Positions 1-6,401 of a stretch of 6,439 bases of DNA are shown here, one piece after another; positions within the stretch are counted from its first letter, which is position 1; every line of letters begins with the position of its first letter. Position numbers and translations under genes: made by a program. The notes under the pieces were generated by a model, which was not told where the DNA came from, searched no databases, and saw only the letters and a program-made list of their open reading frames with translations. Origin of the DNA: a virus (taxonomy: Duplodnaviria > Heunggongvirae > Uroviricota > Caudoviricetes); the IMG/VR virus record IMGVR_UViG_2695420380_000009. One strand, 5' to 3'.

Positions 1-137
1 TAACAGGTGTCTGGAAATATAGGGGCAAATCCAGCGTTCATCAGCCCCCGCATTGCCGACAGGATCACAGACGGGGGGCGCAACTGGTTGTCGTTCAACT
101 GGCCCAGCTACCGTTCTTGTATCAGAGGTGTGGCTGC

Positions 138-1529
138 ATGACAACACCAGTCTGGCGTAATGATGACCTGGAAGGCGCTGTCATTGGCGCATTCTTTCTG
201 CGTGGGGCAGATCATGAAGTGATGGATATTCTGATCACACTACCGGCGGACATTTTTTCTGTACGAGCGTATCGGGATATCTACACAGGCATCTGCAGAC
301 AGGCCCGTGTTTCAGGAGTGATTGACCCCGTGCTGTTGTGTAATGAGATGCCGGAACTTGCCCCGGTGATTACTGATACCGGGCGTAAAACCTGGGTGAA
401 GTCTTCACTGGAGCACTATGTTGCAGCGTTGCGGCGCAATGCCGCACTGCGCGATGCAGAAAAAACACTGAATGAGGCGCTGCAGAAATTACGTGATGCG
501 CATACCTGTGAAGCAGCTGAAGATGCCCTGAAGGATGCGCAGAACATGATGGTCACACTGTCGACAGGAAAGGGCGTCATTCAGCCGGTACATATTGATG
601 ATGTGCTTCCGGAAGTGGTTGAGCGTGTTGAATGCCGGAATCAGGGGCTGGAGAAATCCAGGACGTTGATGACCGGTATTGATGAACTGGACGCAAAAAC
701 AGGCGGTATGGAGCCCGGAGACCTGGTATTCATTGCCGCCCGTCCTTCGATGGGGAAAACCGAACTTGCGCTGGACATCATCGACAAGGTGACTGAGCAG
801 GGGCATGGTGTGCTTCTGTTCACCATGGAGATGGCGAACATCCAGATTGGTGAACGTATGGTGTCTGCGGCTGGAGGGATGCCAGTATCACGCCTGAAAT
901 CTGTGGCTCACTTTGAAGATGAAGACTGGGCGCGTTTCTCACAAGGGGTGGGGCGGATGACCGGGCGCAATATCTGGATGGTGGACCAGGCGAACCTGAC
1001 CATTGATGAGATATGCGCAACAACGAAACACCATCTGATTAAACATCCGGAAACGGCGCTGGTGGTGGTTGATTATCTCGGGCTGATAAAAACCCGAACC
1101 ACGGGGCGTCATGACCTTGCCGTGGGTGAAATCTCAAAGGGGCTTAAAGGCCTGGCAAAATCCGGTGGTTTTCCGTTGATTGCGCTGAGCCAGCTCTCCC
1201 GCGGTGTGGAGTCCAGACCCAATAAACGTCCCATGAACTCAGACCTGAAAAATTCCGGAGAAATAGAGGCGGATGCAGACATCATTCTGATGCTTTACAG
1301 GGATGAAGTGTACAACCCGGATACACAGGCTACAGGCATAGCAGAAATTAATATCACGAAACAACGTAACGGTTCTCTGGGGACGATTTACCGGCGTTTT
1401 TATAACGGACATTTTCTGCCTGTGGACCAGGAAAGCGCACAGGTTCTTTCCACCCCAATGCGGCAGCCCCAGCCGCGCAGATACAGCAATACACGTACCG
1501 ACAGCAGTAAGATGGAGCGTTTCTTTTGA
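138..1529 (+). CDS. Replicative DNA helicase, DnaB family (phage P22 gp12-like). Start is ambiguous: ATG at 138 is preceded by AGAGG; the ORF track starts at an in-frame TTG at 117, and the frame stays open to the window edge.
   Basis: Long ORF of about 463-470 aa. Walker A-like motif ARPSMGKTE in a DnaB-like context (GIDELDAKTGGMEPGDLVFIAARPSMGKTELALDI), followed by LVVVDYLGLI and IALSQLSR motifs typical of the DnaB RecA-like C-terminal domain. Stop TGA at 1527-1529 overlaps the next ORF's start. Confidence 0.85.
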   Translation: MTTPVWRNDDLEGAVIGAFFLRGADHEVMDILITLPADIFSVRAYRDIYTGICRQARVSGVIDPVLLCNEMPELAPVITDTGRKTWVKSSLEHYVAALRRNAALRDAEKTLNEALQKLRDAHTCEAAEDALKDAQNMMVTLSTGKGVIQPVHIDDVLPEVVERVECRNQGLEKSRTLMTGIDELDAKTGGMEPGDLVFIAARPSMGKTELALDIIDKVTEQGHGVLLFTMEMANIQIGERMVSAAGGMPVSRLKSVAHFEDEDWARFSQGVGRMTGRNIWMVDQANLTIDEICATTKHHLIKHPETALVVVDYLGLIKTRTTGRHDLAVGEISKGLKGLAKSGGFPLIALSQLSRGVESRPNKRPMNSDLKNSGEIEADADIILMLYRDEVYNPDTQATGIAEINITKQRNGSLGTIYRRFYNGHFLPVDQESAQVLSTPMRQPQPRRYSNTRTDSSKMERFF

Positions 1530-2759: not shown

Positions 2760-3133
2760 TGCGCCATGAGTTTATTTTACCTTATCCGCCGACGGTGAAT
2801 ACTTACTGGCGACGTCGTGGCAGCACATATTTTGTATCAAAAGTTGGTGAGCGTTATCGCCGTGATGTGACGCTAATTGTTCGCCAGCAGCGGCTGAAAT
2901 TAAACCTGTCCGGAAGGCTGGCGATAAAGATTATTGCAGAGCCACCGGATAAGCGCCGTCGTGACCTGGACAATATCCTGAAAGCACCACTGGATGCACT
3001 GACACATGCGGGAGTGTTAATGGACGATGAGCAGTTTGATGAAATCAATATCGTTCGTGGTCAGCCAGTATCTGGTGGACGTCTGGGGGTGAAGATTTAC
3101 CCCATAATGCATGAAGAGCAGGTCAAAAAATGA
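2759..3133 (+). CDS. rusA: Crossover junction endodeoxyribonuclease RusA (Holliday junction resolvase), the full-length copy of 124 aa.
   Basis: ATG at 2759 preceded by AGGAGG at 2743-2748. The protein shows family features as I recall them for E. coli RusA: N-terminal PYPPTVNTYW-type motif and the acidic catalytic region KRRRDLDNILKAPLDALTHAGVLMDDEQ. Start overlaps the upstream stop and the stop overlaps the Q start (ATGA). Confidence 0.85.
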   Translation: MRHEFILPYPPTVNTYWRRRGSTYFVSKVGERYRRDVTLIVRQQRLKLNLSGRLAIKIIAEPPDKRRRDLDNILKAPLDALTHAGVLMDDEQFDEINIVRGQPVSGGRLGVKIYPIMHEEQVKK

Positions 3134-4343
3134 AACTGGAAGATTTACCGAAATACTACTCCCCAAAATCCCCTTGCCTGACCGATGCATCGGNNNNNNN
3201 NNNNNNNNNNNNNNNNNNNNNNNNNNNNNNNNNNNNNNNNNNNNNNNNNNNNNNNNCCGATGCATCGGCCTCAACGTCAAAAGATGCGCTGAGTATCACT
3301 GATGTGATGGCCGCGCAGGGCATGACACAGAATCGGGCTGAGATGGGGTTTTCTGCGTTCCTGGGGAAAATGGGCATCAGTATGAATGACAGAGAGCGGG
3401 CAACAGAATTGCTGACAGAATATGCACTCAGTCNNNNNNNNNNNNNNNNNNNNNNNNNNNNNNNNNNNNNNNNNNNNNNNNNNNNNNNNNNNNNNNNNNN
3501 NNNNNNNNNNNNNNNNNNNNNNNNNNNNNNNNNNNNNNNNNNNNNNNNNNNNNNNNNNNNNNNNNNNNNNNNNNNNNNNNNNNNNNNNNNNNNNNNNNGT
3601 GTGATCGCGTGGCGGCGTTAAGAAAACTCCCGGCAGAAATAAAACCGGCAGTGATGCGTATTATGGCTTCGTATGCGTTTGAAGATTATGCCCGTAGCGC
3701 GGCGAGCAAAAAACAGTGCCCCTGCTGTCACGGAAAAAAATTTATTGAAAGCGAGGTTTTTACAAACAAGANNNNNNNNNNNCCGGCAGAAATAAAACCG
3801 GTAGTGATGCGCATTATGGCTTCGTACGCTTTTGAGGATTATGCCCGCAGCGCAGCGAGTAAAAAGCAGTGCCCTTGTTGCTATGGGGAAAAATTTATTG
3901 AAAGCGTAGTTTTTACAAACAAGGTCCAGTATCCGGATGGTAAGCCGCCGGTATGGGCAAAGTGTACGAAAGGTGTGTATCCGTCTTACTGGGAAGAATG
4001 GAAAAAAGTCAGGGAGGTGGTAAAAGTTGCCTGTCCGGAGTGTGGCGGAAAGGGTGAGGTTTCCACCGCCTGTAAGGATTGCCGTGGGCGTGGTGTCGCC
4101 ATTCATCGTGAAGAGTCGGTAAAACGTGGTATGCCTGTTATCAGAGACTGCCAGCGTTGTGGTGGTCGTGGCTATGAAAGACTACCATCAACGGAGGCAT
4201 TTAATGCTATATGCGAGGTGACAAACCAGATAACACGCGCGTCATGGGAAAAAACAGTTAAGAAATTTTATGATGCGCTGGTGACCCGGTTTGATATTGA
4301 AGAAGCATGGGCTGAGCGGCAGTTAAAAAAGGTAACTAGGTAA
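3130..4343 (+). CDS. Q: Late-gene antitermination protein Q, lambda Q family. As presented it is mosaic and not one intact ORF: the N-terminal part (3130-3433) and C-terminal part (3599-4343) are in different frames across a 165-N block.
   Basis: The N-terminal segment MKLEDLPKYYSPKSP...TDVMAAQGMTQNRAEMGFSAFLGK and the C-terminal tail ...WEKTVKKFYDALV...KKVTR resemble lambda Q as recalled from memory. Central CxxC zinc-binding motifs are present. The gene lies just upstream of a PR'-like promoter and terminator, the canonical Q position. Confidence 0.75.
3630..3923 (+). repeat. Diverged tandem duplication inside Q: two 141-bp copies (3630-3770 and 3783-3923) separated by 'a' plus 11 N, period 153 bp, in frame.
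   Basis: Direct alignment by eye shows about 16 mismatches in 141 bp, 14 of them transitions. Both copies encode PAEIKP[A/V]VMRIMASYAFEDYARSAASKKQCPCC[H/Y]G[K/E]KFIES[E/V]VFTNK. Confidence 0.7.
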
Positions 4344-4348
4344 CAAGG

Positions 4349-4395
4349 TTGATTTTTCCGGAATCTGTGGTAAATTCGTCATAACTATGGGCGTT
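4349..4395 (+). promoter_or_regulatory. PR'-like late promoter: -35 TTGATT (4349-4354), 16-bp spacer, extended -10 TGgTAAATT (4368-4376), followed by a candidate promoter-proximal pause/qut-like element (about 4377-4395).
   Basis: Sigma-70 consensus-like hexamers lie 5 nt after the Q stop. The architecture and downstream sequence cgtcataactatggg resemble lambda PR' (TTGACT-N17-TAAATT then tgactcaacgatggg) as recalled from memory. Confidence 0.6.
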
Positions 4396-4423
4396 TTATG
4401 CCTGACGTTAGAAGAGTTTCTAC

Positions 4424-4449
4424 AACCCGCCGCCGAGCGGGTTTTTTAT
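4424..4449 (+). terminator. Intrinsic terminator (tR'-like) about 40-65 nt downstream of the PR'-like start site.
   Basis: Stem aaCCCGC / GCGGGtt (5 G:C pairs plus 2 A:T pairs) with loop cgccga, followed by a T6 tract (4442-4447). Confidence 0.6.
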
Positions 4450-5043
4450 NNNNNNNNNNNNNNNNNNNNNNNNNNNNNNNNNNNNNNNNNNNNNNNNNNN
4501 NNNNNNNNNNNNNNNNNNNNNNNNNNNNNNNNNNNNNNNNNNNNNNNNNNNNNNNNNNNNNNNNNNNNNNNNNNNNNNNNNNNNNNNNNNNNNNNNNNNN
4601 NNNNNNNNNNNNNNNNNNNNNNNNNNNNNNNNNNNNNNNNNNNNNNNNNNNNNNNNNNNNNNNNNNNNNNNNNNNNNNNNNNNNNNNNNNNNNNNNNNNN
4701 NNNNNNNNNNNNNNNNNNNNNNNNNNNNNNNNNNNNNNNNNNNNNNNNNNNNNNNNNNNNNNNNNNNNNNNNNNNNNNNNNNNNNNNNNNNNNNNNNNNN
4801 NNNNNNNNNNNNNNNNNNNNNNNNNNNNNNNNNNNNNNNNNNNNNNNNNNNNNNNNNNNNNNNNNNNNNNNNNNNNNNNNNNNNNNNNNNNNNNNNNNNN
4901 NNNNNNNNNNNNNNNNNNNNNNNNNNNNNNNNNNNNNNNNNNNNNNNNNNNNNNNNNNNNNNNNNNNNNNNNNNNNNNNNNNNNNNNNNNNNNNNNNNNN
5001 NNNNNNNNNNATGCGTTGGGTTCACAAGCAAACCTCAGGCCCA

Positions 5044-5062
5044 CTGCTTTGCGCAAAAGCAG
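5044..5062 (+). promoter_or_regulatory. Perfect 7-bp inverted repeat, CTGCTTT-gcgca-AAAGCAG, 33 bp upstream of the methyltransferase start. Candidate operator or RNA hairpin; function unknown.
   Basis: Read directly from the sequence. There is no T-tract after it, so it is not a canonical intrinsic terminator. Confidence 0.3.
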
Positions 5063-5094
5063 AATGAGCCTATCAGAGACAGGCTTAATGATCC

Positions 5095-6288
5095 ATGCTT
5101 AATACTGTAAAAATATCCAGTTGTGAGTTAATCAACGCCGACTGCCTGGAATTTATCCGGTCGTTACCCGAAAATTCTGTTGACCTGATAGTCACGGACC
5201 CGCCGTACTTTAAAGTGAAGCCTGAGGGCTGGGATAACCAGTGGAAGGGCGACGATGATTACCTGAAGTGGCTGGACCAGTGTCTGGCGCAGTTCTGGCG
5301 GGTGCTGAAACCTGCCGGAAGTCTTTACCTGTTCTGTGGTCATCGCCTGGCATCTGATATCGAAATCATGATGCGTGAACGCTTCAGTGTGCTGAACCAT
5401 ATTATCTGGGCGAAGCCGTCCGGACGCTGGAACGGNNNNNNNNNNNNNNNNNNNNNNNNNNNNNNNNNNNNNNNNNNNNNNNNNNNNNNNNNNNNNNNNN
5501 NNNNNNNNNNNNNNNNNNNNCGGGCGTATTTCCCCGCCACAGAGCGCATTCTGTTCGCGGAACATTATCAGGGGCCGTATCGTCCGAAAGATGCCGGGTA
5601 TNNNNNNNNNNNNNNNNNNNNNNNNNNNNNNNNNNNNNNNNNNNNNNNNNNNNNNNNNNNNNNNNNNNNNNNNNNNNNNNNNNNNNNNNNNNNNNNNNNN
5701 NNNNNNNNNNNNNNNNNNNNNNNNNNNNNNNNNNNNNNNNNNNNNNNNNNNNNNNNNNNNNNNNNNNNNNNNNNNNNNNNNNNNNNNNNNNNNNNNNNNN
5801 NNNNNNNNNNNNNNNNNNNNNNNNNNNNNNNNNNNNNNNNNNNNNNNNNNNNNNNNNNNNNNNNNNNNNNNNNNNNNNNNNNNNNNNNNNNNNNNNNNNN
5901 NNNNNNNNNNNNNNNNNNNNNNNNNNNNNNNNNNNNNNNNNNNNNNNNNNNNNNNNNNNNNNNNNNNNNNNNNNNNNNNNNNNNNNNNNNNNNNNNNNNN
6001 NNNNNNNNNNNGACGGTGCAGGTGCCGTATACCGATGTGTGGACGCATAAACCGGTGCAGTTCTATCCCGGGAAACATCCGTGCGAAAAACCGGCAGAAA
6101 TGCTGCAGCAGATAATCAGCGCTAGCAGTCGTCCGGGTGACCTGATTGCAGATTTTTTCATGGGGTTGGGTTCGACAGTGAAAGCGGCACTGGCGCTCGG
6201 GCGTCGTGCAATTGGCGTTGAGCTGGAGACTGAACGTTTTGAGCAGACGGTTCGGGAAGTACAGGATTTAGTCAGCCAGAACGGATGA
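5095..6288 (+). CDS. DNA methyltransferase, beta-class amino-MTase (N6-adenine or N4-cytosine; PF01555-like). The central region is N-masked (5436-5520 and 5602-6011).
   Basis: N-terminal catalytic motif IV DLIVTDPPY (a DPPY tetrapeptide) and C-terminal AdoMet-binding motif I region HPCEKPAEMLQQIISASSRPGDLIADFFMGLGSTVKAALALGRRAIGVE. Motif IV preceding motif I is the beta-class order. The frame is preserved across both masked blocks (visible segments at 5095-5435, 5521-5601 and 6012-6288 share one frame). Confidence 0.8.
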   Translation: MLNTVKISSCELINADCLEFIRSLPENSVDLIVTDPPYFKVKPEGWDNQWKGDDDYLKWLDQCLAQFWRVLKPAGSLYLFCGHRLASDIEIMMRERFSVLNHIIWAKPSGRWNXXXXXXXXXXXXXXXXXXXXXXXXXXXXXRAYFPATERILFAEHYQGPYRPKDAGYXXXXXXXXXXXXXXXXXXXXXXXXXXXXXXXXXXXXXXXXXXXXXXXXXXXXXXXXXXXXXXXXXXXXXXXXXXXXXXXXXXXXXXXXXXXXXXXXXXXXXXXXXXXXXXXXXXXXXXXXXXXXXXXXXXXXXXXXXTVQVPYTDVWTHKPVQFYPGKHPCEKPAEMLQQIISASSRPGDLIADFFMGLGSTVKAALALGRRAIGVELETERFEQTVREVQDLVSQNG

Positions 6289-6328: not shown

Positions 6329-6401
6329 GGCCCTTTAGCTCAGTGGTGAGAGCGAGCGACTCATAATCGCCAGGTCGCTGGTTCAAGTCCAGCAAGGGTG
6401 A
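6329..6401 (+). tRNA. ileZ: tRNA with anticodon CAU, closely resembling E. coli tRNA-Ile2 (ileX/ileY type, the lysidine-modified AUA reader); ileZ-like phage-borne tRNA. No encoded CCA.
   Basis: Manual cloverleaf: acceptor GGCCCTT, D-arm GCTC-AGTGGTGA-GAGC, anticodon arm AGCGA-CTCATAA-TCGCC, variable loop AGGTC, T-arm GCTGG-TTCAAGT-CCAGC, 3' acceptor AAGGGTG, discriminator A. The T-arm is identical and the D-arm nearly identical to E. coli ileX as I recall it. Irregularities: G1-G72 mismatch, G2-U71 wobble, A27-C43 mismatch. Confidence 0.7.

Follow-up and report, generated by a model that had tools for sequence, protein, structure and literature searches.

A block of 561 N follows directly on the late terminator in a 6,439-nt stretch of viral DNA (IMG/VR record IMGVR_UViG_2695420380_000009), referred to here as the window, and the locus raises the question of what this block stands for. 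The original prediction, made from the letters alone, regarded it as a masked stretch in a cargo position that could encode at most about 200 residues, to be searched for defence, toxin, or restriction content, and took 18 codons at its right edge for the tail of a possible plus strand ORF. What had been noticed turns out to be an artefact of the assembly that covers an ordinary gene, one that is already annotated. The explanation as a whole, which we hold with high confidence, is that the block is a scaffold gap, that it covers an interval of about 382 bp with the gene for a 65-residue protein (p65), that this interval is part of a mobile cassette that also includes the DNA methyltransferase gene on the right of the gap, and that the cassette is probably subject to a late-expression mechanism.

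Layout and assembly quality of the window

The window represents the regulatory/late-gene junction of a lambdoid prophage (Table 1), and the flanks of the N block are 95-100% identical to Escherichia prophages and Stx-type phages. The block had been placed directly after the late terminator, and this is exactly what is found (4450-5010, with the terminator at 4424-4449); this intrinsic terminator, tR', starts about 80 nt past the stop of the Q ORF (4343) and forms the left edge of the gap. The 18 codons that end with TGA at 5065-5067 and a perfect 7-bp inverted repeat at 5044-5062 are likewise present where they had been reported, the methylase ATG being at 5095. The Q gene is split into two frames (ORFs at 3130-3621 and 3609-4343); the intact homologue in the prophage of Escherichia coli TOE17 (L002, 3740-4561) encodes 273 residues and matches Pfam PF03589 (Antiterm) with E = 5e-54, and window positions 3783-4449 are 99.1% identical to TOE17. 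On the right, the cassette ends just upstream of the tRNA gene at 6329-6401, where the relatives are annotated with tRNA-Ile, Arg, and Arg.

Each non-N segment of the window was aligned to complete relatives, namely TOE17 (L002), JE86-ST05 (L003), and Stx2_EH1910 (L001), and the length of each N run was compared with the homologous interval (Table 1). All six long N runs exceed that interval, by 66-179 nt. The 12-mer CCGATGCATCGG is duplicated, with one copy on each side of the 63-N run, as is typical where the ends of two contigs overlap and have been left unmerged; the 11-N run is spanned by an allelic overlap of about 140 nt, and the reading frame of Q is broken by the 165-N run. At 1905 and 2599, single n's connect overlapping versions, three in all and 96-98% identical, of the NinB-like/RusA region of about 2 kb, all of which align to one set of coordinates in intact phages; the middle of Q is present in two versions. 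The same chimeric style, with a single N and duplicated pieces, is seen in the IMG/VR contigs L045, L111, and L112. When the source contig was looked for by exact patterns, the tR' 27-mer had no match among genome contigs and a junction that includes a single n had none among viral contigs, whereas two window-specific patterns recovered related contigs, none of which has the N runs of the window. Judged from these alignments, the 561 N are a scaffolding gap of unreliable length in a fragmented and partly chimeric draft, as opposed to a length-true mask. The lengths of the N runs do not track real sequence, and therefore nothing can be learned from the values of "561 nt" and "up to 200 aa". The window as a whole has to be flagged as chimeric and gap-ridden, and neither its N-run lengths nor its ORF lengths are trustworthy.

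Table 1. Features of the window, and lengths of the intervals that correspond to its N runs
Feature	Position	Strand	Remarks
DnaB-like helicase ORF	117-1529		
Repeated pieces of a small 85-aa ORF and RusA	between helicase ORF and Q		
Q antiterminator gene	3130-4343	+	disrupted by three N runs and by duplication of an allelic piece
Late terminator tR', AACCCGCCGCCGAGCGGGTT plus T run	4424-4449	+	7-bp stem, 6-nt loop; terminator scan
561-N run	4450-5010	.	scaffold gap; homologous interval 382 nt in complete relatives
Readable 84 bases, 3' domain of structured spacer (H4-H6)	5011-5094	+	non-coding
Helix H4	5020-5028 paired with 5084-5093	+	alignment columns 85-93 with 153-162
Helix H6 (7-bp inverted repeat)	5044-5062	+	hairpin kept with other sequences in other genera
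DNA methyltransferase ORF	5095-6288	+	interrupted by two N runs
First tRNA of late-region tRNA cluster, anticodon CAT	6329-6401	+	ARAGORN; Rfam tRNA 60 bits
63-N run			homologous interval -12 nt in complete relatives
165-N run			homologous interval 1 nt in complete relatives
11-N run			homologous interval about -142 nt in complete relatives
85-N run			homologous interval 19 nt in complete relatives
410-N run			homologous interval 341 nt in complete relatives

Gene content of the interval and its neighbourhood

In TOE17, the left flank (99.1% identical to that of the window) and the right flank (100%) enclose 382 nt (L002 4668-5049), which consist, in this order, of a 118-nt leader, a 198-nt p65 gene with a Shine-Dalgarno sequence, a terminator-like hairpin, and helices H1-H3 of a folded spacer; in E. 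coli, the terminator-like hairpin overlaps the p65 stop codon and is followed by a hairpin with a 12-bp stem. The protein encoded there is WP_000917767.1. Intact sequences that contain both flanks always have 381-385 nt between them: the interval measures 381-384 nt in all 14 non-chimeric viral contigs, the best 40 matches of a longer query agree on its length, and the span is 722-725 nt in 22 of 22 two-piece matches from an evenly spread sample of complete E. coli genomes, as compared with 901 in the window. Of 5426 complete E. coli genomes, 1884 contain the p65 interval at ≥80% coverage and 1828 the right flank. In place of the coding capacity of about 200 residues that had been ascribed to a 561-nt mask, the gap is predicted from these relatives to contain about 382 nt, made up of the leader, the p65 gene, and the 5' half of the folded spacer.

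The 179 nt by which the N run exceeds the usual interval would, if its length were accurate, fit a novel prophage variant with truly about 561 nt of other cargo, such as an extra moron, a toxin or defence gene, or an insertion, and the post-tR' site is indeed polymorphic (at least 120 contigs; PMC4104026). Since all N runs of the window are over-long by 66-179 nt, however, this excess is within error. No natural 561-nt variant was found among the 22 sampled complete E. coli genomes or the 14 IMG/VR viral contigs, and the 3' half of the spacer that is visible in the window needs a 5' half, which lies directly after p65 in 35 of 38 cases; a larger insert is therefore very improbable. Three apparent long variants (1405, 1852, and 1975 nt) were rejected, all three being single-N chimeric scaffolds.

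It is also conceivable that the gap joins two prophages, the contig ending at 4449 and that starting at 5011 coming from different lambdoid prophages of the same genome; the right-hand contig would still have p65 upstream of it in its own prophage. TOE17 and other relatives carry this Q allele, tR', p65, and the 5' end of the methylase gene in one prophage with 99-100% identity, which makes the join as it stands biologically plausible, and an origin from two prophages is considered unlikely. It would nevertheless account for the redundant alleles that are strung together in the window (three for the NinB-like/RusA region and two for the middle of Q) and for the fact that identity to any single relative differs by segment (99.1, 100, and 90%). 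Also in its favour, the tR' 27-mer is a repeat common to several late architectures and the contig ends exactly at their point of divergence, and the best matches of the helicase-RusA part are phages with neither this Q nor this methylase.

The gene assigned to the gap encodes a common conserved late-region protein of phrog_331, a family of unknown function; the TOE17 protein, whose counterpart is not visible in the window, matches phrog_331 over residues 1-64 with E = 1.4e-37. RefSeq labels its relatives "hypothetical" or "TrmB family transcriptional regulator", no NCBIfam model covers it, and its best Pfam match is TrmB at 18 bits versus a cut-off of 25.6, the other sub-threshold matches being weaker and all to winged-helix families. 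An AF2 model of p65 contains three helices at low confidence (pLDDT 62.8), and the top Foldseek matches of the model are all winged-helix domains, with non-significant E values of 0.2 or worse. On these low-confidence predictions, p65 may have a winged-helix-like fold. The recognition-helix motif RCQLILTQL is nearly invariant, although p65 homologues fall to 41% identity. When profiles were run on the intact homologue of the interval, no toxin, nuclease, restriction, or defence domain was detected (Pfam, PHROG, and PADLOC), and PADLOC gave no credible match for p65 (14 bits). The suspicion of such content is thus not upheld: what occupies the interval is a conserved late-region hypothetical protein without defence or restriction domains. 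This removes a false lead, as no hidden restriction, toxin, or defence gene is indicated beside the methylase.

The methylase ORF of the window matches PF01555 (E = 2e-44), and VTDPPY and FFMGLGS are readable in it; the N-terminal DPPY and C-terminal FxGxG motifs are those of a beta-class N6-adenine/N4-cytosine DNA methyltransferase. PADLOC returns MTase_II (E = 1e-166), and the relatives in the PDB are RsrI, CcrM, MboIIA, and DpnA. The apparent 397 codons are inflated by two N runs, the relatives having 349 residues. The best phage match is 1720a-02, to which the 5' end of the methylase gene is 97.9% identical, and this phage carries an MTase very similar to M.EcoGII (Murray et al. 2018; PMC5778455). 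M.EcoGII is a non-specific adenine methylase that is harmful when constitutively expressed, and both M.EcoGI and M.EcoGII are silent in lysogens (PMC5778455). Non-specific adenine methylation may be expected of the window's allele solely through its likeness to the 1720a-02 enzyme. A restriction-modification or defence reading of the methylase was rejected because PADLOC gives only MTase_II and the neighbourhood is without an endonuclease; in PADLOC and in the neighbourhood of the relatives, no endonuclease or other effector gene was found beside the methylase, its neighbours being p65 and the tRNAs.

The structured spacer between p65 and the methylase

Positions 5011-5067 read MRWVHKQTSGPLLCAKAE (18 codons) followed by TGA at 5065-5067, and in E. 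coli an unannotated ORF of 33 codons ends with them. The corresponding frame is without an ORF of at least 6 codons in 13 of 29 species and is shifted between groups, and the spacer carries 1-nt indels in its loops; the stretch was therefore rejected as the coding tail of an ORF and is instead the 3' domain of a structured spacer. Positions 5011-5094 are 100% identical to TOE17 (L002) 5050-5133. The arms of the perfect 7-bp inverted repeat at 5044-5062, CTGCTTT and AAAGCAG, enclose gcgca; by a rough estimate, the chance of a 7-bp repeat in 84 nt is about 0.03, and the repeat is conserved across genera.

The spacer, of roughly 135 nt, measures 134-153 nt in 28 of 29 species and, with a mean column identity of 77%, is more conserved than the p65 protein. 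The RNAalifold consensus consists of six helices with 33 pairs in two domains, of which H1-H3 fall inside the gap and H4-H6 in the visible positions 5011-5094. In this consensus, 96.8% of the cells are paired, as compared with 27-44% after the partners have been shifted by 1-3 columns; two-sided changes occur in 9 pairs and 35 cells, and none of 500 shuffles reaches the observed values. There are 92 G-U cells versus 14 A-C cells, which favours the plus strand, the sense of late transcription, as the folded one. The single E. coli sequence folds alike (z = -4.05). A compensatory change is seen in GGCTGGTGGGTG/CACCCACCAGCC of E. coli versus GACTGTAAAAGTG/CACCTTTACAGTC of Proteus, and another Proteus has GACAGTGAGGATG/CATCCCCGCTGTC. 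In H4, which closes the 3' domain and whose end adjoins the methylase ATG, AAG/CUU is changed to GGA/UCU in Proteus and Providencia; in the fold of the single E. coli sequence, 5017-5022 pair with 5090-5095. The H6 hairpin has the sequences GCTTTAGCGCTAAAGC and TGCTTATGTGCACAAAGCA in other genera. A covariance model built from the spacer alignment matches window positions 4990-5097, across the N's, with 58.7 bits.

It should be recognized that most of the covariation lies between the Proteus/Providencia/Plesiomonas clade and all other sequences, so that the independent covariation events are few. Variation in H1 consists of one-sided transitions only, and conservation of the terminator after p65 does not extend to Proteus or Providencia. 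A broader p65 profile run against viral contigs recovered only E. coli copies, with proteins 98-100% identical, and brought no gain for covariation. With Rfam 15, there was no plus strand match at E ≤ 1 for TOE17 (L002) 4984-5133 or for window positions 5011-5094, the sole match being to P26 on the minus strand at 24 bits versus a gathering score of 36. No description of the structured leader or of its linkage to p65 was found in Rfam or the searched literature; a Pas sRNA preprint, the AgvB/AsxR paper, and the StxS paper were considered and set aside, as they concern positions other than the spacer. The structured leader and its tight linkage to p65 are the only potentially new items at this locus.

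In the fold, the last 10 nt before the methylase ATG, where no Shine-Dalgarno sequence is evident, would be paired to a segment that lies about 65 nt farther upstream. The folded spacer would thereby probably throttle or gate translation of a harmful methylase, and p65 may act on the spacer RNA or on its DNA palindrome. We tentatively suggest, as a possibility that falls somewhat short of an even chance, that the spacer is a previously undescribed cis-regulatory RNA that gates the toxic methylase through sequestration of its initiation region, with p65 as a possible trans-acting partner.

The same palindromes could act mainly as DNA, either as operators for a dimeric winged-helix protein or as part of an internal promoter. 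H6 is a near-perfect palindrome in each lineage (GCTTTAGCGCTAAAGC, a TGCGCA-centred form in E. coli, and a TGTGCACA-centred form in Proteus), the p65 motif RCQLILTQL is nearly invariant in parallel with the conserved spacer, and TGTG-n-AAAT at the 5' edge resembles an extended -10 element and repeats TGTGGTAAAT of the putative pR' -10. Sequence changes in H2/H3, a hairpin of 12 bp, and in the long-range helix H4, however, leave the pairing intact, with loops that vary, and the 92 G-U cells pair only on the plus strand, which is the signature of a single-stranded fold and not of a protein-bound duplex. A promoter scan was empty, and the silence of M.EcoGI and M.EcoGII in lysogens (PMC5778455) speaks against a constitutive internal promoter. 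A function mainly at the DNA level is thus judged improbable relative to one in the RNA.

Within the transcript, the spacer may alternatively serve as an intercistronic processing signal that is cut by RNase III or RNase E and stabilises the upstream message or activates the downstream one. Between the two cistrons of this transcript, it does form two hairpins that are long and irregular and whose internal loops are conserved, and H1, H2, and H3 stack to about 17 bp with a bulge; the hairpins resemble the RNase processing sites of phage T7 early mRNAs and of the lambda N leader. The stems are, however, shorter than the approximately two helical turns typical of RNase III substrates, and processing as the main function is regarded as quite unlikely; it is, moreover, compatible with translational gating and does not exclude it. 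Structured RNAs comparable to a folded spacer before the methylase cistron are known in phage transcripts, among them the lambda N leader, the T7 RNase III sites, and HK022 put. The spacer differs from these in having two domains with six helices, and no sequence or model similarity to them was found.

The cassette, its expression, and related systems

The operon linkage with the methyltransferase that had been raised for this block is borne out, as in 32 of 34 species-level loci a methylase follows the p65 homologue at a constant distance, even where identities have fallen to 41 and 59%; the two exceptions are a cut contig and a locus in which the methylase is replaced or deleted. The cassette occurs in Escherichia, Salmonella, Klebsiella, Kluyvera, Citrobacter, Enterobacter, and Buttiauxella, as well as in Proteus, Providencia, Mangrovibacter, Mixta, Scandinavium, and Plesiomonas. 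Among the matches to the spacer covariance model, 35 of 38 have p65 upstream and a methylase downstream, and a further 73 of 74 p65 loci (viral contigs, E. coli copies) are accompanied by the element and a methylase. The gene just upstream of the cassette belongs to any of three unrelated Q families (PF03589, PF06323, and PF06530). p65, the structured spacer, and the M.EcoGI/GII-type methylase are one mobile cassette that is conserved across Enterobacterales.

The identical tR' 27-mer was found in at least 120 viral contigs, and the architectures that follow it were counted among those 120. It is followed directly by the tRNA cluster, in a 933W-like arrangement, in about 95 contigs, by the p65-methylase cassette in 14, and by another gene in 6. 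A few bases past the methylase stop, the sequence is again homologous to the arrangement without the cassette, and this, together with the presence or absence of the cassette among the contigs with the tR' 27-mer, indicates that the cassette is a discrete module at the moron site. The same post-tR' site has been described as a moron insertion site by Tree et al. (PMC4104026), and the view that the block lies in a cargo position is correct in this respect. The GC content of the cassette (0.49-0.55) is like that of the flanking phage DNA, and a simple scan of TOE17 (L002) 4500-5200, which weak or atypical promoters would escape, gave no sigma-70-like promoter.

In lysogens, transcripts from pR' end at tR', and read-through follows the loading of Q (PMC7547250). 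The cassette would be silent in a lysogen because transcription from pR' stops at tR', and after induction the Q-modified polymerase would pass tR', so that the methylase would be made late and might protect progeny DNA from restriction. Enzymes of the M.EcoGII type are in wide use as tools and do harm when expressed, and no account was found in the searched literature of how phages keep them off until late lysis. A module of p65 and a structured leader in more than one-third of complete E. coli genomes would give a testable handle on the control of such methylases.

The late regions of Stx and other lambdoid phages (1720a-02, Stx2_EH1910, phiP27, and the TOE17 prophage) have the order Q, pR', tR', small gene, methylase, tRNAs, and, in some cases, stx. 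The window shares this gene order and near-identical sequence, and the gene for the 65-residue protein is annotated in those records; it is missing from the window because the window is a gapped, chimeric scaffold. The window differs from the Stx late regions in containing no stx and in ending at the first tRNA. The lambdoid morons (Juhala et al. 2000, as cited in PMC4104026) share with the cassette the character of presence/absence modules just downstream of pR'/tR'. The cassette is distinct from them in that no promoter of its own was detected and its GC content does not deviate, and its expression is expected to be late and Q-dependent as opposed to arising in the prophage state.

In the C-protein circuits of type II restriction-modification systems, a small protein, of helix-turn-helix type as p65 may also be, is likewise encoded just upstream of the modification gene, with a palindrome between the two genes. 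The cassette is, however, without a restriction endonuclease gene, p65 appears winged-helix-like whereas C proteins are of the Xre/HTH_3 type, and the spacer behaves as a folded RNA and not only as a DNA operator. M.EcoGI and M.EcoGII of E. coli O104:H4 (PMC5778455) are, like the methylase of the window, prophage-borne beta-class enzymes of 349 residues with DPPY and FxGxG motifs; an upstream small gene and a structured leader are not described in that paper. The likeness to M.EcoGII is drawn through the 1720a-02 enzyme and is not a direct sequence identity to M.EcoGII. The silence of M.EcoGII in lysogens and its toxicity on forced expression fit the position of the cassette behind tR'.

Structured spacer between p65 and the methylase

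The folded intergenic RNA that separates the gene for p65, a 65-residue winged helix-like protein, from the M.EcoGI/GII-type methylase gene is conserved with covariation across the Enterobacterales, and this p65-methylase spacer has no match in Rfam. Its closing helix ends beside the ATG of the methylase, and there is no evident Shine-Dalgarno sequence at that ATG. Coordinates in the window and in L002, the homologous prophage region of the complete Escherichia coli TOE17 genome, are collected in the table.

Two of the compared loci are natural deletion variants that lack the methylase. In L200 (1699-1771), p65 is retained, the spacer is cut short after its first 74 nt, and the methylase is absent; in L172 (4157-4302), p65 and the spacer are both retained, with small open reading frames in place of the methylase. 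These variants could reveal the action of the spacer alone.

TGTGGTAAAT, a 10-mer that belongs to the putative extended -10 element of the late promoter pR' (window 4366-4375), occurs again at the 5' edge of the spacer (L002 4997-5006). Its TGTG-n-AAAT core is nearly invariant between genera, and the repeat may serve as a -10-like promoter or act as a sigma-dependent pause element. In p65 itself, the motif R-C-Q-L-I-L-T-Q-L in the third helix hardly varies among homologues whose overall identity falls to 41% (alignment A3), just as the neighbouring noncoding spacer is strongly conserved.

The cassette of small gene, leader, and methylase was also found directly behind three unrelated families of the antiterminator Q, PF03589, PF06323, and PF06530 (species loci L158-L189, upstream of position 4001), and the presence of one cassette behind three such families implies modular exchange at the boundary formed by pR' and its terminator, tR'.

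Features of the window and of the homologous L002 region
Feature	Window	L002	Description
Structured spacer	5011-5094 plus gap	4984-5133	~135 nt, six helices, between small winged-helix gene and methylase
Methylase ORF	5095-6288		Apparent 397 codons; relatives 349 aa
tRNA, anticodon CAT	6329-6401		ARAGORN, tRNA-Met; RefSeq relatives, tRNA-Ile
Region of first N run breaking Q	3182-3268		Real bases replaced, -12
Second N run breaking Q	3434-3598		Real bases replaced, 1
Third N run breaking Q	3772-3782		Real bases replaced, about -142

Chimerism of the scaffold

It should be recognized that the window scaffold is a concatenation of alleles from several prophages. Between 1305 and 3193, a region comprising the 3' end of the helicase gene, an 85-residue ORF, and the 5' part of rusA is present three times in overlapping, head-to-tail versions that are 96-98% identical, and the single n at 1905 and that at 2599 mark the joins between them. 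Open reading frames that cross these joins (e.g. 1783-2151 and 2405-2683) are therefore chimeras. In the Q gene, the 12-mer CCGATGCATCGG is duplicated, with one copy on each side of the first N run, and the third N run is followed by ~140 nt from a second Q allele.

The methylase ORF appears overlong because its N runs of 85 and 410 stand for 19 and 341 real bases. Its 3' part (6012-6288) has only 90-93% identity to relatives that match its 5' part at 100%; the gene is therefore a mosaic, or its ends come from different prophage copies.

tRNA and downstream region

A lysidine-type, ileX-like tRNA would explain the discrepancy between the Met and Ile assignments of the CAT tRNA. The window copy has a G-T and a G-G pair at the end of its acceptor stem. 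Beyond the window, on the 3' side of the tRNA cluster, L002 6559-6600 matches the Rfam model of the small RNA STnc100 weakly and in truncated form (23.8 bits, E = 0.016); according to the Pas-sRNA preprint, STnc100 matches are common in such prophage regions.
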